Shown here: one piece after another, positions 11,403-19,592 of the stretch
Layout: each line of letters starts with the position of its first letter
Position numbering within the stretch: the stretch's first letter is position 1
Origin: Spirochaetaceae bacterium
GTDB lineage: Bacteria; Spirochaetota; Spirochaetia; SZUA-6; Bin103
Direction: 5' to 3'
Assembly (NCBI GenBank): GCA_028821475.1
Contig: JAPPGB010000086.1
Coordinates: 54,896-118,895, forward strand
DNA: 64,000 bases
The notes under the pieces: model-generated
Seen by the model: the letters and a program-made list of their open reading frames with translations, nothing else
Database searches by the model: none
Told to the model about the DNA's origin: nothing
Program-made: the position numbers and the translations under genes

Positions 11403-12926
11403 GTGAGCGCACGCCCGGACATCGTATGGGTCATGTGCGACCAGTTGCGCTGGGATGCCGTCGGGTACGCCGGGAACCCGGCGGCGCGCACCCCCAACAT
11501 CGACCGCCTGGCGGAGCGCGGCGCGTGGTTCGAGAGCGCGTACTGTGCTTCCCCGCTGTGCTCGCCGGCGCGGGCGAGCTGGCTCACCGGCACCTACCCG
11601 CACACCCACCGGCTGTGCAACAACTACGCGCCCTCGCGCGAGGGGATCGACGGCTGCACGCTGTCCGACCGGTGCGTGACCATCGCCGACCTGTTGCGGC
11701 AGCACGGCTATGCGTGCGGCAACGTGGGGGTGTGGCACCTGAGCGACGACGCCGTTCCCGCGCACGGCTTTACCGACCACTGGTGCTGCTTCAGCTACGT
11801 CTACGAGAACCTCCCCGGCCCCTTCTTCGGCGACCTGGAAGAGCAGGGCATCGCCAACCCCTACGCCCTGGATGCTCCGGGGATATTCCGCTACGGCCGC
11901 GAGATGCCGCTCGGCGTGCTGACCGACCCACGCCAGCAGCGCACCACCTGGACCGTCGACCAGGCGCTCGCCGTCCTGGAACGCGACCGCGACCAGCCGC
12001 TGTTCCTGCTCGTCGGCGTCAAGGACCCGCATCCACCGATCATCCCACCACCGGAGTTGCTCGCCCTCTACGACCCGGACCGGCTGCCGTTCCCGCACAA
12101 CTTCCACGACCCGCTGGAAGGCAAGCCGCGTTCGCAGGCCCGGCGCCGCGGCCGCGTCCCGCCGGGCTCGGTCACGGACGAGGAATTCCGCACCGTGATG
12201 CGCTACTACTACGCGCTCGTCACCCACGTCGACCGGCAGATCGGGCGCCTGGTCGCGGCGCTCGAACGGGCCGGGCGCCTCGACCGCACCATCTTCGTGG
12301 TGAACAGCGACCACGGCGAGATGCTCGGCAACCACGGCTTCGTGGAGAAGGCGCTGATGTACGAGGAGTCGGTGCGCGTGCCGTGCCTGATCTCCTGGCC
12401 GGAGGCGATACCGGCCGGGCAGCGCGTCACGACTCCGTTCGGCGGGGTGGACCTGGTCCCCACCCTGCTCGGCCTCGCCGGGGCGCCCGCGCCCGCCTCC
12501 CTGGAAGGCCGGTCGATGGCGCCCGCGATCATGGCCGGCGCCGTCCCCGAGCCGGCTCCCGTGTTCGCGGAGGTCGCCGGCGCCGCGGCGATCTACGAGG
12601 GCGACCGCGACCCGGCCCAGCTCGCCGCCCACGTCATGGTGGTCGCGGACCGCTGGAAGTACGTGTGGAACCGCTTCGAGATCGATGAACTGTACGACCT
12701 CGCTGGCGACCCGGCGGAGATGCACAACCGGGCGCAGTCGCCGTCGTGCGCAGAACGCGTGGCCGGGATGCGGCGGCTCATCGTCGCCATGCTGGAGCGC
12801 AACGGTCCCGGCTGGTACGACTGGTGCACCCAACTTCCACACGCCGGGCGTGCCGGGCTTGCCCGGCTACAACCTGTTCCTGCCGATCCCGTTCAGCCGC
12901 TCGTGCCGCATCGTCTGGACACATAA
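11403..12926 (+). CDS. Sulfatase (second paralogue); the last ~30 codons are read through a relic fragment of a DUF2961 gene
   Basis: It has the CSPAR formylglycine motif and a GTG start. The 3' end, 12831-12926, is encoded by the 82-bp relic in a different frame from its origin. Confidence 0.8.
   Translation: MSARPDIVWVMCDQLRWDAVGYAGNPAARTPNIDRLAERGAWFESAYCASPLCSPARASWLTGTYPHTHRLCNNYAPSREGIDGCTLSDRCVTIADLLRQHGYACGNVGVWHLSDDAVPAHGFTDHWCCFSYVYENLPGPFFGDLEEQGIANPYALDAPGIFRYGREMPLGVLTDPRQQRTTWTVDQALAVLERDRDQPLFLLVGVKDPHPPIIPPPELLALYDPDRLPFPHNFHDPLEGKPRSQARRRGRVPPGSVTDEEFRTVMRYYYALVTHVDRQIGRLVAALERAGRLDRTIFVVNSDHGEMLGNHGFVEKALMYEESVRVPCLISWPEAIPAGQRVTTPFGGVDLVPTLLGLAGAPAPASLEGRSMAPAIMAGAVPEPAPVFAEVAGAAAIYEGDRDPAQLAAHVMVVADRWKYVWNRFEIDELYDLAGDPAEMHNRAQSPSCAERVAGMRRLIVAMLERNGPGWYDWCTQLPHAGRAGLARLQPVPADPVQPLVPHRLDT
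12831..12912 (+). pseudogene. 82-bp relic of a DUF2961/GH172-like gene (76/82 identical to 15839-15920, codons 108-134 of the intact gene at 15519-16943)
   Basis: Direct alignment of the two stretches. The relic abuts the AT-rich island at 12913. Confidence 0.7.
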
Positions 12927-12992
12927 TTATGTTACTACAAATGGATTGCAGCTCCTCCCTACCTCGGCGGCCGAATTATCTCCGATCGCTTG

Positions 12993-13020
12993 TTGACAAT
13001 TTCGGAAAAAGCTGTATTGT
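12993..13020 (+). promoter_or_regulatory. Sigma70-like promoter candidate for the island operon (TTGACA-N16-TATTGT)
   Basis: The -35 element is at 12993-12998 and the -10 at 13015-13020. It lies about 30 bp upstream of the GAAGG RBS and the ATG at 13050. Confidence 0.4.
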
Positions 13021-13049
13021 CCGGGCACGCGACTTGGCGTGAAGGTTTC

Positions 13050-13541
13050 ATGCGATTGATTACGACTACCAGTGCACAACAACACCGCATTCACTTTGAG
13101 ACGAGGAAGGGTACCCCTATTGTCAACTCCCAGTCGCCGGTCATCGCAGCGTGGCAGACCAACCAGTTCTCCCAACTCCAACGACGGTACCCCAAAATAG
13201 TACATCGTACCGGGCCTTCCGGTTTCTACAACTGTCATGGACTCGTCTTCGCGTCGCGTCGCGCGGAGATATACACTCCTGAAGTTAACAAGATTCTTCA
13301 TGAAGATTGCTACAGTGAGATTAGGCCGCTACAAGACGTGAAACCTGGGGATGTCATTCTATACTATGACTCCGACGGGGACATTGAGCACTCTGGAATT
13401 GTAGTTGCCGAACCGAGAGCCGACACGCTACTTATTCCGATGGTGGTGAGCAAGTGGGGCGCGTGGCGTGAGGTGGTCCATTTCGCCAATGATTGCCCGT
13501 ACACTTTCGCGGACGCAAGATACTACAGAGTGGTGTCATGA
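13050..13541 (+). CDS. Island ORF1: predicted papain-fold (NlpC/P60 or CHAP-like) Cys/His hydrolase, 163 aa
   Basis: There is a Cys in YNCHGLVFAS and a downstream His in DIEHSGIVV, in the NlpC/P60-CHAP order, with a GAAGG RBS. The track ORF starts at TTG 12990, which overlaps the promoter. This is a motif-level call only. Confidence 0.5.
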   Translation: MRLITTTSAQQHRIHFETRKGTPIVNSQSPVIAAWQTNQFSQLQRRYPKIVHRTGPSGFYNCHGLVFASRRAEIYTPEVNKILHEDCYSEIRPLQDVKPGDVILYYDSDGDIEHSGIVVAEPRADTLLIPMVVSKWGAWREVVHFANDCPYTFADARYYRVVS

Positions 13542-13981
13542 TCGATCTCTTGGAGAACCGCGTATATTCTGTTGCTGATACTCTGTTGGTCGCAAACACA
13601 CCTGTTTACTTGCTCAAGCGTCTGCGACAGTCTCTCGTGGACCTTGCCAAGGAAATCCCCATTGACCGGATAGTCGAGGAGTTGCGCAAGGAACTGTCTG
13701 ATTCATCCCCGAATCAATTCGACCTCCAGAAAACAGCGTACGTGTACGCGTTATTTGTGTTGATGACGTACGAGCCATACCAATATGTCCGGGACGAGCT
13801 CCGTTGGATCCGCGAAAGTGGACTCCGTTGGATCCGCGAAGTAATTGAACACTACGAGCGCTCGGCAGTGTCCTTGGATTCGGTCACGGTTGACATTCCC
13901 GCTCGGAACGTACGGTTCTATACGACCACAGCAACGGATAATACCAACACACCTATCTCCTTGGATATCGCTCAGGGATGA
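13538..13981 (+). CDS. Island ORF2: hypothetical protein (147 aa, predicted helical)
   Basis: It is coupled to ORF1 by an ATGA overlap. It contains an internal 18-bp direct duplication (LRWIRE x2). I recognise no family. Confidence 0.45.
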   Translation: MIDLLENRVYSVADTLLVANTPVYLLKRLRQSLVDLAKEIPIDRIVEELRKELSDSSPNQFDLQKTAYVYALFVLMTYEPYQYVRDELRWIRESGLRWIREVIEHYERSAVSLDSVTVDIPARNVRFYTTTATDNTNTPISLDIAQG

Positions 13982-14418
13982 AGTCTATCTTCTTCGTAGT
14001 CTCCGAGGGATCGTCAATCGATATTTCGACCAATGCCCTCTCTATCTTCAACATTATTGAAGGCATTAGTTCCGCGAGTCTGCCCCTCATTATCCCGAAA
14101 TGCATAATAACTCTAGTTGTGGAACGGGAGGAAGGCGATCCCGAACCGATAGAGGGTCGCATCACCATAACCAACAACGAGCATGAGATACACTCAACTC
14201 CGGCGCAAATCCATGCCCGAGGTGCGCCCGGCGCGAGGCTGTCAATCACAATAAACGGGCTTCCGGTTCATGCTCCTGGCAAACTGACCTTCAAGTATAC
14301 AGTTGACGATTCAAACTTTGAGGCGCAGACTAGCATAAGCGTATCAGAACCCAAGGTCTCAGGGGAACAACATAGTGAGCCTGCGGGCTCTATATCGACG
14401 CCGCAGCCTTCTTGCTGA
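13978..14418 (+). CDS. Island ORF3: hypothetical protein (146 aa, predicted beta-rich)
   Basis: It is coupled to ORF2 by an ATGA overlap. I recognise no family. Confidence 0.45.
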   Translation: MKSIFFVVSEGSSIDISTNALSIFNIIEGISSASLPLIIPKCIITLVVEREEGDPEPIEGRITITNNEHEIHSTPAQIHARGAPGARLSITINGLPVHAPGKLTFKYTVDDSNFEAQTSISVSEPKVSGEQHSEPAGSISTPQPSC

Positions 14419-15080
14419 GACAAAGATCTAGTCGGATCGTCAATAGATTGGTTGATATACAGAGCAGTGCTATCAGAGACGATCCCGCCATTGGGCTCTA
14501 TGCGGCTCAGATGGACGAGATAAAGAAGCGCGCCGATGTCGTAGCATGCTTTCTGACACGTCGGTGTACTGCGCTGTATGATGTGCCGAGTGCTGAATGC
14601 GTAGCGCTGCAGATTCGCAAGATACTGGAGTTGATTGCGCTGGCTTCTCTGGTTGCGAACAAGGCGGAGTACGCGGCGATGCATGCGAAGTTTGAAGAAC
14701 ACTGGAAGGCGAAAGAGATTCTGGACAACATCAGAGAGATCAATCCTAAATTCTATCCTGTTCCAACAATGCAGCATAGAAGGGAAGACGGGATATTCGA
14801 TAATCAGCCAGTTAAGACCGGCTTTCTCACAGCCGACAACTTCAAGACTCTATATGATCAGTGCTCTAAGCTGCTTCACGTACGAAACCCTTTTTCCAAG
14901 AAGGCAGCCGGTGATGCAAAGCGATTCCTGAAGGACGCAGCTCAGTGGATGAACAGAATTCGTGTGCTTCTAAATCATCACGAGATCATACTTGCAGGCC
15001 GTGATCAGTTGATCATCTGCCTAATGCGAAGCGAAGACGACGGACAACCGCACGCTGCCCTGTTCGAATTAGTAAAGTAA
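14412..15080 (+). CDS. Island ORF4: hypothetical protein with a C-terminal HEPN-like Rx4HH motif (possible RNase)
   Basis: It overlaps the ORF3 stop. It has a C-terminal motif NRIRVLLNHHEI (R-x4-H-H) in a predicted helical protein. The start codon is uncertain: TTG at 14412 or ATG at 14511. Confidence 0.4.
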   Translation: MLRQRSSRIVNRLVDIQSSAIRDDPAIGLYAAQMDEIKKRADVVACFLTRRCTALYDVPSAECVALQIRKILELIALASLVANKAEYAAMHAKFEEHWKAKEILDNIREINPKFYPVPTMQHRREDGIFDNQPVKTGFLTADNFKTLYDQCSKLLHVRNPFSKKAAGDAKRFLKDAAQWMNRIRVLLNHHEIILAGRDQLIICLMRSEDDGQPHAALFELVK

Positions 15081-15518
15081 CTTGCCCACTCAAACGTCGC
15101 GAAAAATCCACAACGGTAGCCAAGACGACGACGCTTTCTTTGTGAGGGGCTAACAGCACTGCGCAGTGTCGTCAACCCTGCCGTGTGAGCGTTTGGTAGG
15201 CTCTACTGCTCGCTCCTTCATTCGGTCCCTTACGAGCTTCTCTGGAGATTCTCGAGGTCGAGAACCCATCGAAGAGCGTATAGCATGGTCAAAGGTCTCT
15301 GCTCCCCAGGTCGCGCGGTCATTTTTGTAAACGACCAAGCCCCTATCGGTATCAAGAAGTCTAGTGGTGTTGCCCCGCAACAACCTGGCTTGTACGATTG
15401 ATGTGCCGGGAGGCTGGGAGGCTGTCTGACTGCGGCGGGCTGTCCCTGTCGCCGGTCGGGTGGACGCCGCAGGCGGCGCTCCGGGGCATGAGGCCGGCAG
15501 CTTCAGGAGGCTGACAAC

Positions 15519-16943
15519 GTGAACCAGTTCCCCACTACGACGGTCCAGGACCCGGCTGTCCCGATGGTCGCGCTGCCCGCGCGGTTCCGTTCGCAGCGTC
15601 AGATCACCAACGTGCGCGACGAGGATGTGCCGGCGGGCGGCTGCGTCGACATTCTGGACGTGGAGGGCCCCGGCGCCGTGCGCCACGTCTGGCTGCTGTA
15701 CGGCACCGGCCGGCGGCTGGAGATCACCGTCGACGGCGCGTCCGTGCCGCAGGTCGACGTGCCGTTCGACCCGTTCTTCGGCATCATGAACGACCTGCAG
15801 CCCTACCCGGTCGACTGCGCCGCCTACACCGTGCTGCCCAACTTCCAGACGCCGGGCGTACCGGGCGTGCCCGGCTACAACCTGTTCCTGCCGATCCCGT
15901 TCAGCCACTCCTGCCGCATCCGGCTGCACCTGCCGGCCACCGGCGAGCGGCGCGTGTCGACCATGGTGGACTGGCAGCAGTATGACGCCGGCACCGACCT
16001 CACGCCGTTCCGCCTCGGCGCCGAATACCATCGCTACCTGCCCGCCCCGCCGCGCAACCGCGCCTATCGCATCGCCGACGTCACCGGCAGCGGCTTCATC
16101 GCCGGCGTGGTGCTCGGCGCCCGGCAACGCAACCACACCGACATGGTGTACCACACCGGCGGCATGTCGATCCTGATCGACGGCGAGGACGACCCGCACG
16201 TGATCCGCGGCATCAACATGGAAGACGACTTCGGGTTCTCCTGGGGATTCCACGAGCGGCAGACGCGCTGGATCGGCTCGCCCTACCACCGGCGGCGCTC
16301 CCGCACCGACCAGGACGGCGTGATCTACCGCTTCTTCGGCCCCGACCCGATCGCCTTCCGCTCCTCGATCTCGCTGCGCTGCGGGTCGCGCGACGACGAC
16401 ATCGAGACGATGGCTTACTACTACCGGATCGCCGGATCGGAGGAGGAGGCGGCGCCGGCGCCGGTGCTGACCCCGGACCGCTGGCTGGTGACCGGCTTCC
16501 ACGACGGCGGCGGCGACTGGCAACGGTTCAGCGCGCCCGAGGAACCGGAAACCGTCCCGCACGACCGCTGGCGCGACCACTTTGCCGACCGGCCGAGGTT
16601 CATCCGCGAGGTGCCCCCCAACCGCGGCTGGATCGACTTCCGCTTCTCCGGCATCGACCCGGCGCTGCCCGGCAGCACCTTCGTGAACCGCTCGATGTAC
16701 GCCGCGGGATCGGTGAAAAGTGACCGCGAGTGCCGGGCGGTGCTACGAATCTCCTGTGACGACTGGCTCATCACCTGGCTGAACGGAACGCGTGTCGCAA
16801 CGCTGCGCCACGAGGACGGCTTTCAGACGGCCCGCATTCCGGTGACCTTGCTCCAGGGACGCAACACCCTGCTCATCAAGAACAACAACCTGCACCACTC
16901 GCACGCCGCCTGGGTCGCCAACGTAATGATCGAGGAAGGGTAG
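15519..16943 (+). CDS. DUF2961 (GH172-like) family protein
   Basis: GTG start with an AGGAGG RBS. The 474-aa product is recognised as DUF2961/GH172 by general similarity to DUF2961 proteins; I cannot point to a diagnostic motif. It contains the 82-bp segment duplicated at 12831-12912. Confidence 0.6.
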   Translation: MNQFPTTTVQDPAVPMVALPARFRSQRQITNVRDEDVPAGGCVDILDVEGPGAVRHVWLLYGTGRRLEITVDGASVPQVDVPFDPFFGIMNDLQPYPVDCAAYTVLPNFQTPGVPGVPGYNLFLPIPFSHSCRIRLHLPATGERRVSTMVDWQQYDAGTDLTPFRLGAEYHRYLPAPPRNRAYRIADVTGSGFIAGVVLGARQRNHTDMVYHTGGMSILIDGEDDPHVIRGINMEDDFGFSWGFHERQTRWIGSPYHRRRSRTDQDGVIYRFFGPDPIAFRSSISLRCGSRDDDIETMAYYYRIAGSEEEAAPAPVLTPDRWLVTGFHDGGGDWQRFSAPEEPETVPHDRWRDHFADRPRFIREVPPNRGWIDFRFSGIDPALPGSTFVNRSMYAAGSVKSDRECRAVLRISCDDWLITWLNGTRVATLRHEDGFQTARIPVTLLQGRNTLLIKNNNLHHSHAAWVANVMIEEG

Positions 16944-17243
16944 CCGGACACCATTGGGCATACCGACATCTATAGTGAAGGTCCGACATCGTTGGTCCTC
17001 CATTCCTATTCCACTCAACAATCCAAATCCAGTCTGAGTGAGATCCAGATCTTGAGCGAGCTTCTCTGTGATGGAACAACCAGTTGCACCTGTATCGACG
17101 ATGGCTTTCACTTGATGCTGGTCACGAGGACCGAAGCCAACTGGAGGCTCGCCACGGTGTTCTGAAATCCCGACATCGACAGTCAACGTGCTTACGCGTC
17201 CTGCGTAACGCACAGAGAACGCCGCTGATGGCGTTTTAGCCAC
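16743..17243 (-). CDS. Retropepsin-like (clan AA) aspartic protease domain protein
   Basis: It has the DTGA catalytic motif (AIVDTGATGCSIT) about 45 aa from a GTG start. The roughly 100-aa domain ends near 16935. The ORF reads on another 190 bp antisense into the DUF2961 gene before a stop, so the true 3' end is doubtful. Confidence 0.5.
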   Translation of the reverse strand: MAKTPSAAFSVRYAGRVSTLTVDVGISEHRGEPPVGFGPRDQHQVKAIVDTGATGCSITEKLAQDLDLTQTGFGLLSGIGMEDQRCRTFTIDVGMPNGVRLPFLDHYVGDPGGVRVVQVVVLDEQGVASLEQGHRNAGRLKAVLVAQRCDTRSVQPGDEPVVTGDS

Positions 17244-17505
17244 TTTCCAGTCTGACTCTTGAATGAAAGGTTAGCGTATACGCTTCTGGCCCTGGCTTAC
17301 ACTCTTGAACTATGAAGGTTCCGCGATCATGCTTCTTCAACGCTTCGGCTACGGCCTCTTGGTGAGATCCATACGCGCCTACTACTTCTTCGCCAACTAT
17401 CACCACGAACTGATCCGGGTACTTTTCGACCAGCTGATCCTGATTGGCAAGGAAGTACTGGAAAGACCTATCAAGCGTCTCGACCTTTCCGCTATGTATT
17501 GACAT
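17236..17505 (-). CDS. Small hypothetical protein (89 aa, DUF5678-like) coupled to the retropepsin gene
   Basis: An ATG preceded by GAAGGAGA. It overlaps the downstream protease start by 8 bp. The region has low GC. Confidence 0.5.
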   Translation of the reverse strand: MSIHSGKVETLDRSFQYFLANQDQLVEKYPDQFVVIVGEEVVGAYGSHQEAVAEALKKHDRGTFIVQECKPGPEAYTLTFHSRVRLESG

Positions 17506-17811
17506 GAACAGCCGTCTCCTTCAACTGTGAGGCAGCGACACGCCAAGCCCTCCATGTGAACCGTGAACGGCGCTCTGGCGTCAGGAAGGACCATAGATCT
17601 GCCACGATGAAGTATACCCTCCTTCGTGAGCTGATTCCAACTCACGATGCAAGCGGTCGAAAACCGTATCTCGGGTCGGCCGACGCGTCAAGCATGATTC
17701 GGGGCCAATGCGGGGCCAATCGTGGGTCTGTGTATGGTGCCGGCTCCTCCTTCGTCTTGCCAGCGCCGCGGGCGCGGCCGTCTCGGTCGCGGATGGGCCG
17801 GCCCCGACCGG

Positions 17812-18186
17812 TCAGGCGGGGGAGACCGGCTCCAGCCACTCGGTGGATTCACCGAGGTTGATGGCGATGTGGGTCATCGGGCCGTCCGCGGTGGCCCCGT
17901 GCCAGTGCTTCTCGCCCGGCGCGAAGCGCACCACGTCACCGGCTTCGGCCACTTCCACGGCGCCGCCCCAGGTCTGAATCGCGCAGCGCCCGGCCACCAC
18001 GTACAGGATCTGCACGTCGCTGTGGGTATGCCAGTTGGTGCCGGCGCCGGGCTCGAACGCCACCCGGTACACCCGTCCCGCGGCCTCCGGCTCCGAACCG
18101 AGAAAGCGCTGCATCGTCGCGGCGCCCGTGAAGTGGTCCGCCTCCGCGTCCTCGGTGGCGCGGCCGGCGGCGGCAAGCAATTCCAT
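17812..18186 (-). CDS. Cupin domain protein
   Basis: A two-His cupin motif (GTNWHTHSDVQILYVVAG ... GEKHWHG). The start is taken at the internal MELLAAAG. Confidence 0.6.
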   Translation of the reverse strand: MELLAAAGRATEDAEADHFTGAATMQRFLGSEPEAAGRVYRVAFEPGAGTNWHTHSDVQILYVVAGRCAIQTWGGAVEVAEAGDVVRFAPGEKHWHGATADGPMTHIAINLGESTEWLEPVSPA

Positions 18187-18308: not shown

Positions 18309-19592
18309 TTGAGCAAGACCACGCTCCGCCCCAACGTCACCCGGCCAAGACCGGCCGCCTCGGAGGTCGCCACCGAGCGCTCAGGCGGCGCCTCCCATGT
18401 GCGTATCGACACCGCCGATCCACGCCGGTCCGTTTCCCTGGACCGTTCGGTGCTCATGTGCGGATGCGCGAGCGAAGCGATGGAACTGCTCCCCGCGCGG
18501 AGCGTCCAGACCGTGGTCACGTCGCCGCCCTACTGGTCGCTTCGCGACTACGAGATGGATCGGCAGATCGGCCGCGACGATCCGCTCAATCGCTACTTGC
18601 AGAGCATCGTGGAGGTGTTCGAGAAGCTCCACCGCGTACTCACTGACGACGGCACCGTGTGGCTTAACCTCGGCGACGCTTACACGTCCGGCAATCGTCG
18701 CTACCGCGCACCGGACAGGAAGAATCGGGCGCGCGCCATGTCCGTGCGGCCGGTCACTCCCAAGGGACTCAAGCCCAAGGACCTGATCGGACTTCCGTGG
18801 CGCCTCGCCTTCGCGCTGCAGGATGCCGGTTGGTGGCTTCGCTCGGAGGTCATCTGGCACAAGCCGAACGCGCATCCGGAGTCGGTTCGGGATCGACCGA
18901 CAAAAGCGCATGAGACGGTGTTCCTGCTCTCCAAGAGCCAGGACTACTACTACGACATCGGTGCCGTCCGCGGCCCCAACCAGCGCCGGCTGAGAACGGT
19001 TTGGGACATACCGACCGAACCGCAGCGCCGCAACGGCACAGATGACGATCACCCGGCAATGATGCCGATGACCTTGGCTTGCAGATGCGTCGCGATCACC
19101 AGCCGGCCGCACGACGTGGTGCTCGATCCGTACGCAGGCTCCGGAACAACGCTGCTCGCCGCACGCGATCTCGGAAGAAGATGGGTTGGCGTGGAGTTGA
19201 ACCCGACCTTCGTCGACCTGATCGAACGCCGCATCAAGGCGCACACACCAAGCCTGTTCCCCGAGGACCCGGCCGGGCCATATGGAAACACGATCCATGC
19301 CCGGCGGGACCTCGCGGATTCCGCGAGGGAATCCGATCTCGCAGCCGCGGTTCAGAAGCGGTCGGCGCGGAACAGGGTCGGGTCGAGGGATGGCGGCTCG
19401 CCGAGCACTACTTCGGCGGCGGCGCGGCCGGTGGCGGGGCCAAGGGAGACGCCGACCATGCCGTGGCCGGTGGCCAGCACGAGGTTGCGGACTCCCTTGG
19501 CGCGGCCGAGGATGGGCAGCGTGTCGGCTGACAGGGGGCGCATGCCGCGCCAGATCTCCAGCACTTCCAGTTCCTGCATGCCTTCCAGGTAA
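18309..19592 (+). CDS. DNA methyltransferase, beta-class (N4-cytosine or N6-adenine); no cognate restriction gene nearby
   Basis: Motif IV SPPY lies upstream of motif I DPYAGSGTT, which is the beta-class order. The core domain spans about 18450-19290. The ORF continues without a stop for about 300 bp antisense into the convergent oxidoreductase gene, so the C-terminal extension is doubtful. The start is TTG. Confidence 0.7.
   Translation: MSKTTLRPNVTRPRPAASEVATERSGGASHVRIDTADPRRSVSLDRSVLMCGCASEAMELLPARSVQTVVTSPPYWSLRDYEMDRQIGRDDPLNRYLQSIVEVFEKLHRVLTDDGTVWLNLGDAYTSGNRRYRAPDRKNRARAMSVRPVTPKGLKPKDLIGLPWRLAFALQDAGWWLRSEVIWHKPNAHPESVRDRPTKAHETVFLLSKSQDYYYDIGAVRGPNQRRLRTVWDIPTEPQRRNGTDDDHPAMMPMTLACRCVAITSRPHDVVLDPYAGSGTTLLAARDLGRRWVGVELNPTFVDLIERRIKAHTPSLFPEDPAGPYGNTIHARRDLADSARESDLAAAVQKRSARNRVGSRDGGSPSTTSAAARPVAGPRETPTMPWPVASTRLRTPLARPRMGSVSADRGRMPRQISSTSSSCMPSR

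Follow-up and report, generated by a model that had tools for sequence, protein, structure and literature searches.

The first gene of a low-GC island in a Spirochaetaceae bacterium codes for what its sequence and predicted structure identify as a genuine, highly divergent protein of the NlpC/P60 superfamily of papain-like cysteine hydrolases. This gene, open reading frame 1 (ORF1), heads a group of three that appears, from comparison of many loci, to be a conserved, translationally coupled operon that travels as a unit and has not been described before. The island lies in the window analyzed here, by which we mean the whole stretch of 64,000 nucleotides from contig JAPPGB010000086.1 (assembly GCA_028821475.1), and the three genes are all on the plus strand: ORF1 at 13050-13541 (163 amino acids), ORF2 at 13538-13981 (147 amino acids), and ORF3 at 13978-14418 (146 amino acids). 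We hold the fold and enzymatic nature of ORF1, together with the triad, with high confidence. That ORF1 is the enzyme of a self-contained, mobile three-gene cassette acting in genetic conflict is a further proposal, which we favor slightly.

A word-indexed search identified 123 homologues of ORF1, and an exhaustive HMMER search of representative clusters returned 3,554 at E≤1e-3, 1,745 at E≤1e-10, and 372 at E≤1e-30. All six nucleotide differences between ORF1 and two 98%-identical metagenomic copies are synonymous, and this pattern of change, taken with the numbers of homologues and clusters, places ORF1 far beyond a chance reading frame. Nearly all of the clusters are 150-220 amino acids long and are matched over their full length, and the domain is therefore not found in fusions; two apparent exceptions are artefacts, the large "fusion protein" at locus L082 being a spurious high-GC extension of the ORF and the ORF1-ORF3 "fusion" at L059 a decayed copy. 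Neither ORF1 nor ORF2 is named by Pfam, NCBIfam, PHROGs, or PADLOC.

The 163-amino-acid frame contains both of the motifs quoted in the preliminary description, which had proposed a papain-like thiol hydrolase. Residues 58-69 (GFYNCHGLVFAS) include Cys62 (codon TGT, 13233-13235) and residues 109-122 (DGDIEHSGIVVAEP) include His114 (codon CAC, 13389-13391). That proposal was to be abandoned if the Cys and His varied among homologues; in a 256-sequence alignment, in which all residue conservation was counted, Cys62 is present in 256/256 sequences and His114 in 255/256. Ser134 (250/254), Lys135 (252/254), Glu141 (249/253), and His144 (252/252) are conserved to a similar degree, Asn61, Gly64, Arg71, Asp86, and Asp101 are invariant or near-invariant, and Arg160 is also listed as invariant.

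ORF1 opens with an ATG at 13050 and closes with a TGA at 13539-13541. An alternative in-frame start, TTG at 12990, lies upstream, and we prefer the ATG because a Met occupies the start column in 199/212 homologues, a Shine-Dalgarno-like GAAGG is found at 13041-13045, 4 nucleotides 5′ of the ATG, and there is a promoter-like site between the two starts. This sigma-70-like candidate (12993-13020, plus strand) has TTGACA and TATTGT hexamers separated by 16 nucleotides, agrees with the consensus at 10 of 12 positions, being a consensus match only, and ends ~30 nucleotides 5′ of the ATG. An antisense ORF at 12927-13301 is without support.

The AlphaFold2 (AF2) model of ORF1, with a predicted local distance difference test score (pLDDT) of 94, has Cys62 opening a helix (residues 62-67) and His114 within a strand (residues 112-120) of the beta-sheet after it, and the top Foldseek match in the Protein Data Bank (PDB) is an NlpC/P60 chain, 4xcm_B, with a probability of 0.99. 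A phmmer comparison with the PDB chain of Mycobacterium tuberculosis RipC (E 0.048) aligns both the Cys and the His, with FDCSGLV facing YNCHGLV of ORF1, and HAGI facing HSGI; the NCBIfam RipC model also finds ORF1, with an E value of 0.002 and 17.6 bits against a cut-off of 425. In Pfam, ORF1 itself has a marginal match to Amidase_6 (E 0.068) and none to the NLPC_P60 and CHAP models. Among 62 homologues, there are sub-threshold matches to NLPC_P60 in 24, DUF7689 in 21, Amidase_6 in 18, DUF1287 in 11, and CHAP in 3; the best homologue match to NLPC_P60 (PF00877) has an E value of 0.007 (14-18 bits, short of the cut-off of 23), the best to CHAP (PF05257) scores 18.3 bits against a cut-off of 26, and all homologues scanned miss the gathering thresholds of these two models. 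Amidase_6 (PF12671), DUF7689 (PF24738), and DUF1287 (PF06940) recur as weak matches over the catalytic core (best E values of 1.4e-4 and 3.6e-4) and are probably the nearest curated sequence families. No member of the ORF1 family reaches their gathering thresholds, these families are themselves uncharacterised, and we found no paper on DUF7689.

These structure and profile matches indicate an NlpC/P60 papain-like fold, as the preliminary description had supposed, and no other fold is indicated. Its broader suggestion of an NlpC/P60, CHAP, or LRAT-type enzyme survives in part: the NlpC/P60 assignment stands, CHAP is matched only below threshold, and the LRAT affinity falls away, as the Cys-then-His order belongs to the non-permuted branch and not to the LRAT/PLAAT arrangement (His before Cys, NCEHF, and a C-terminal anchor). 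Structural similarity to CHAP enzymes, including glutathionylspermidine amidase, is lower than to NlpC/P60 proper. ORF1 also departs from the known NlpC/P60 peptidases (PF00877; for example, Bacillus cereus YkfC [3h41], Thermus thermophilus 4xcm, Escherichia coli MepS, and RipC), falling below the family threshold, having NCHG where these have DCSG, and carrying the additional family invariants R71, D86, S134-K135, E141, and H144. It further differs in lacking a signal peptide or wall-targeting domain, and in being obligately tied to two partner genes.

The resemblance to known structures is modest, which counts against the explanation we favor: Foldseek finds no PDB match at E≤1e-3, with template modelling (TM) scores of ~0.38 to solved NlpC/P60 structures, and hhalign comparison of the ORF1 family with MepS gives a probability of only ~6%, although the Cys and His are aligned. 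The global and low-mact hhalign modes disagree over the C-terminal part. Candidates for the third catalytic residue are the invariant polar residues S134, E141, and H144; the order of strands would put Ser134 where MepS has His131, a position at which forced hhalign alignments are inconsistent. When the ORF1 alignment was used as a profile to search PDB sequences, the sole match was a quinone oxidoreductase (E 1.7), which is spurious; searching with the single sequence, which matched RipC, performed better.

ORF1 is predicted to be cytoplasmic. The preliminary description had noted a stand-alone domain with no signal peptide, and this holds across the family: none of the 62 homologues has a lipobox, a membrane anchor, or a signal peptide, their N-termini lack hydrophobic regions, and no 19-amino-acid window exceeds 1.6 in hydrophobicity. 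The proteins are single-domain, 150-220 amino acids long, and have no wall-binding module such as LysM or SH3b. The lack of both an export signal and a wall-binding module argues against a conventional wall hydrolase.

The ATG of ORF2 overlaps the stop codon of ORF1 (ATGA), and the ATG of ORF3 overlaps the stop codon of ORF2 in the same manner. We compared the triad at 73 genome loci, several metagenomic contigs, and two viral contigs. At nearly all of the ~75 non-redundant loci, ORF1 is followed by homologues of ORF2 and ORF3, or by ORFs of the same sizes in the same slots: a protein of ~150 amino acids in the second (an ORF2 homologue or a divergent ORF of that size), and a DUF6941 protein of ~135-155 amino acids in the third. 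The ORF1/ORF2 junction is a 4-nucleotide ATGA-type overlap in 31/52 loci, and the spacing between ORF2 and ORF3 is comparably tight; an all-against-all comparison of the flanking ORFs revealed no fourth conserved gene.

ORF2 (isoelectric point [pI] 4.9) has no match among known families. It is apparently helical, as suggested by the pattern of its sequence and by weak profile hits on helical chains in the PDB, and has no transmembrane segment; an N-terminal ANTPxY motif (N20, T21, and P22), Y70, and W98 are retained across loci, with a mean column identity of 20%. A match of ORF2 to the PADLOC KwaB model (E 0.016) and sub-threshold matches to GAD and Herpes_capsid were dismissed as noise. ORF3 (pI 5.0) is an all-beta DUF6941 protein (PF22091), passing the threshold with a score of 30.2 bits where 27 are required (E 6.2e-7) and an alignment that spans positions 5-117 of the 125 in the profile, and its homologues already carry precomputed PF22091 marks. 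Asp15 and Pro36 are invariant in ORF3, and its alignment has no conserved stretch of 7-10 residues; we found no paper on DUF6941. For both partners, profile searches against PDB sequences gave nothing meaningful, the N-termini carry no signal peptide, and there is no recognisable DNA-binding domain.

The partners evolve faster than the enzyme. At the same loci, identity to the window protein is 35-72% for ORF1, 14-53% for ORF2, and 18-50% for ORF3, and the two 98%-identical metagenomic copies differ from the window by five amino acid changes in ORF2 and 14 in ORF3, with none in ORF1. In one of these copies, L002 (corresponding to window positions 12876-14412), there are 20 nucleotide and 12 amino acid changes in ORF3; in L002 and L003, ORF1 has 2-4 nucleotide changes and no amino acid change. 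This uneven change between near-identical copies suggests diversifying selection or recombination in the DUF6941 gene.

The triad is found in 73/185,579 species belonging to unrelated phyla, with hosts in the Spirochaetia, Acidobacteriota, Planctomycetota, Verrucomicrobiota (Chthoniobacter flavus), Ignavibacteria, KSB1, Nitrospirota, and Chloroflexia, as well as Proteobacteria (Dechloromonas and Acidovorax), Leptospira, and Saccharibacteria; the closest ORF1 relatives are in Spirochaetia, at 51-74% identity. The GC content of the cassette is below that of its flanks at 58/59 loci, with a median difference of -9.3 points, and most copies are chromosomal and outside prophages. One copy adjoins an integrase and a type II CRISPR-Cas locus (Cas9), one a NikA/relaxase mobilisation module, one a Y1 transposase, and one (L088) MNT/HepT and PIN toxin-antitoxin genes. 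Some copies are decayed, with a frameshifted or truncated ORF1 or ORF3 (for example, L028, L044, L054, L059, and L068). Some genomes have two copies on separate contigs, among them Spirochaetaceae Gx481_bin89 (L036 and L061) and GCA_000493925.1 (L006 and L008), and in the lineage of the latter an identical ORF1 occurs in 44 index blocks, of which 24 contigs were read, beside the integrase and type II CRISPR-Cas genes. These multiple copies per genome or lineage suggest an actively spreading element. Taken together, the comparisons portray the triad as a horizontally spread cassette that moves as a unit between phyla.

A Pfam and PADLOC scan of 133 immediate neighbours of the cassette gave a mixed picture, with a few IS1595 transposases, integrases, SDH-type proteases, AbiEii-like ATPases, and kinases. 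The commonest neighbour is a ClpP-like SDH-type serine protease (PF01972), which lies downstream of the triad at L088 (8644-9618) and L090 (8458-9462) and accounts for 3 of the 133; it is found at unrelated loci and in either orientation, and is too poorly conserved to belong to the system.

A connection with phages comes from two places. One of the viral contigs (L085) is a P2-like prophage, in which the genes for the portal (phrog_68) and large terminase share a strand, and those for the scaffold (phrog_73) and major head protein (phrog_70) lie on the opposite one; the triad forms a 36-39% GC insert in this 62-68% GC genome, directly past the 3′ end of the portal gene, and the gpA anchor is not visible. 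The second involves ORF4 (14511-15080, plus strand; 189 amino acids, or 222 from a TTG at 14412), the gene that follows the triad in the window and matches phrog_13799 with an E value of 8e-39. Its only homologue in a sequenced phage is in the Peduovirus Yersinia phage vB_YpM_50, where it lies between a gpA-like nickase gene (phrog_91) and the portal gene. Rousset et al. 2022 (PMC9122126) define the cos-proximal interval between gpA and gpQ of P2-like phages as a place where anti-phage systems concentrate, and both cargo units of the island, the triad and ORF4, thus have relatives in this kind of position, which is suggestive, each being a single locus. The triad resembles the cargo of that hotspot (old, tin, PARIS, and others) in its position next to the portal gene in L085, in the placement of the ORF4 family between gpA and gpQ homologues, and in being a short (~1.4 kb), AT-rich, and self-contained cassette; it differs in that it resembles none of the described hotspot systems or PADLOC models in sequence, and in that most of its copies lie on chromosomes, away from prophages. 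ORF4 itself is a candidate single-gene exclusion or defence protein.

We propose that ORF1 has thiol amidase or peptidase activity and would cleave, or less likely transfer, an amide or peptide bond of some molecule inside the cell, perhaps a protein, perhaps a peptide of the gamma-glutamyl or peptidoglycan-precursor type. The faster-evolving ORF2 and ORF3 would restrain ORF1, or set when and on what it acts, or both. The most likely use of the cassette would then be in defence against phages, by abortive infection or exclusion, or in addiction, and not in wall growth. In favor of a part in genetic conflict are the much stronger conservation of ORF1 than of its partners, the L085 insert next to the portal gene, and the hotspot position of the ORF4 homologue; a conflict role of one or the other kind, defence or addiction, is for us a close call that falls just short of even. 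More specifically, the triad might be a new and widespread anti-phage system whose effector is a cytoplasmic NlpC/P60-fold cysteine amidase, a chemistry absent from the catalogued defence systems; in this version, which we put forward tentatively and consider rather unlikely as it stands, ORF2 and ORF3 would act as sensor and inhibitor, and infection would free ORF1 to cut an intracellular protein or peptidoglycan-precursor peptide.

Several findings weigh against a part in genetic conflict. There is no clear enrichment of defence genes among the 133 immediate neighbours, most of which are ordinary metabolic genes, and no component of the triad matches any PADLOC v2.0 defence model, with no match at all for ORF1, ORF3, or ORF4. 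The ORF1 family is absent from 72,556 plasmids (PLSDB) and 50,697 sequenced phages (INPHARED), and is present in only 2 of 2.9 million IMG/VR contigs; because the family is so rare in plasmids and phages, the phage-hotspot argument comes down to one triad locus and the neighbouring ORF4. On the question of a location in defence islands or mobile-element hotspots, the L085 position, the Cas9 and integrase, toxin-antitoxin, and relaxase neighbours, and the low GC speak in favor, and the mostly ordinary immediate neighbours speak against. A literature search on NlpC/P60 proteins and defence found nothing relevant.

Of the other explanations, the one that fares best is a purely selfish, toxin-antitoxin-like addiction module in which ORF1 would poison the cytoplasm unless ORF2, ORF3, or both neutralised it. 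The small size, mobility, and AT-richness of the cassette would suit such a module, as would its candidate promoter, its translational coupling, the acidic partners, and the other toxin-antitoxin pairs adjoining the copy at L088. However, the putative toxin comes first in the operon, neither partner has a recognisable DNA-binding domain, and the strict three-gene architecture is unusual for type II systems. We consider this explanation unlikely, and it overlaps with the one we favor instead of excluding it.

Somewhat less probable is a housekeeping cytoplasmic amidase, acting either in murein-peptide recycling, as a YkfC-like gamma-D-Glu-diamino-acid endopeptidase, or in hydrolysis of gamma-glutamyl or thiol conjugates, as glutathionylspermidine amidase does, with ORF2 and ORF3 as accessory subunits. 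The sporadic spread of the triad over unrelated phyla does not suit a metabolic enzyme, and nor do its systematically foreign GC content, its variable flanks with no linked transporter or pathway genes, its decayed copies, or its fast-evolving partners.

The nearest structures to ORF1 are all wall hydrolases, endolysins, or type VI secretion system (T6SS) amidases, which would favor a conventional peptidoglycan hydrolase, whether an autolysin or an endolysin-like DL-endopeptidase or amidase, acting on the cell wall. Canonical endolysins also lack signal peptides. Nevertheless, a signal peptide, lipobox, anchor, and wall-binding domain are all missing, the cassette encodes no holin-like membrane protein (ORF2 having no transmembrane segment and ORF3 being a beta-sandwich), the family is essentially absent from phage genomes, and no NlpC/P60 or CHAP model is matched at threshold; we consider a wall hydrolase very improbable. 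Least probable is an interbacterial toxin, an amidase effector like Tae or Tse1 with ORF2 and/or ORF3 as immunity protein and the secretion system encoded elsewhere, since the triad, unlike the Tae/Tai and Tse1/Tsi1 pairs, has no linkage to a secretion system (no T6SS, type VII secretion system [T7SS], contact-dependent inhibition [CDI], PAAR, VgrG, or Rhs component is among the 25 most frequent of 135 Pfam families in the 133 neighbours), immunity to a periplasm-acting amidase needs signal peptides that ORF2 and ORF3 do not show, the partners always number two and keep a fixed order, and the enzyme is more conserved than its partners, although this last pattern alone would also fit toxin-immunity pairs.

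In the window, the triad is carried by a low-GC foreign insert (~12913-15400; GC 0.45-0.55, or roughly 50%) with flanks of 0.69-0.72 GC (roughly 69%), situated between a sulfatase gene and a DUF2961/GH172 gene (15519-16943). ORF1 is the first of four same-strand ORFs in this block, in agreement with the preliminary description, in which it headed a foreign operon; the fourth, ORF4, is a separate cargo gene of the insert, outside the conserved triad. No integrase, transposase, or tRNA gene was found in or beside the insert.

Two 84-nucleotide direct repeats, 94% identical and 3,008 nucleotides apart, bracket the insert and the 5′ part of the GH172 gene. The right copy (15837-15920, plus strand) is inside the intact DUF2961/GH172 gene, and the left copy (12829-12912, plus strand), which abuts the insert, is an internal fragment of a GH172 gene that the sulfatase ORF reads, out of frame, at its 3′ end. 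This left junction is not an assembly artefact, as it recurs in two independent contigs from metagenomes, L001 (100% identity) and L002 (98%); the L001 contig begins and finishes within the two repeat copies. The repeat structure may go back to Campbell-type recombination or to what is left of a GH172 paralogue. The sequence of L003 differs to the left of window position 12929, hinting at the left edge of a mobile unit. An imperfect 32-nucleotide palindrome, GGGCTAACAGCACTGCGCAGTGTCGTCAACCC, lies at 15147-15178, 67 nucleotides past the ORF4 stop and with no T-run, and could be a terminator or a recombination site. We rejected the idea of an integron cassette, as the insert has only this palindrome, which does not resemble an attC site, and no long, imperfect inverted repeat of the attC kind, and Rfam gave no matches.

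Beyond the insert, the minus strand at 16743-17505 carries overlapping genes for a DUF5678 protein (89 amino acids) and then a retropepsin-like aspartyl protease (166 amino acids, with a DTGA motif), located in a second patch of lower GC (0.586 for 17001-18000); the pair looks like another small accessory two-gene module. Farther along the same variable stretch as the island, a gene at 18309-19592 on the plus strand codes for an N6/N4 DNA methyltransferase (PF01555, E 3e-47), which may be an orphan methylase; no restriction partner is obvious in the list of ORFs.

The ORF1 family has a familiar fold and a likely chemistry, and numbers thousands of clusters while appearing in no curated library. 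What is new is its fixed partnership with ORF2 and a DUF6941 protein, which constitutes a compact and previously undescribed mobile system. If ORF1 is only a metabolic amidase, the outcome is a routine improvement in annotation. If the triad is a defence or addiction module, it would provide the first function for DUF6941, would bring an intracellular NlpC/P60 amidase among the known effectors of genetic conflict, and would offer a small, easily cloned system of 1.4 kb for studying how such an enzyme is silenced.
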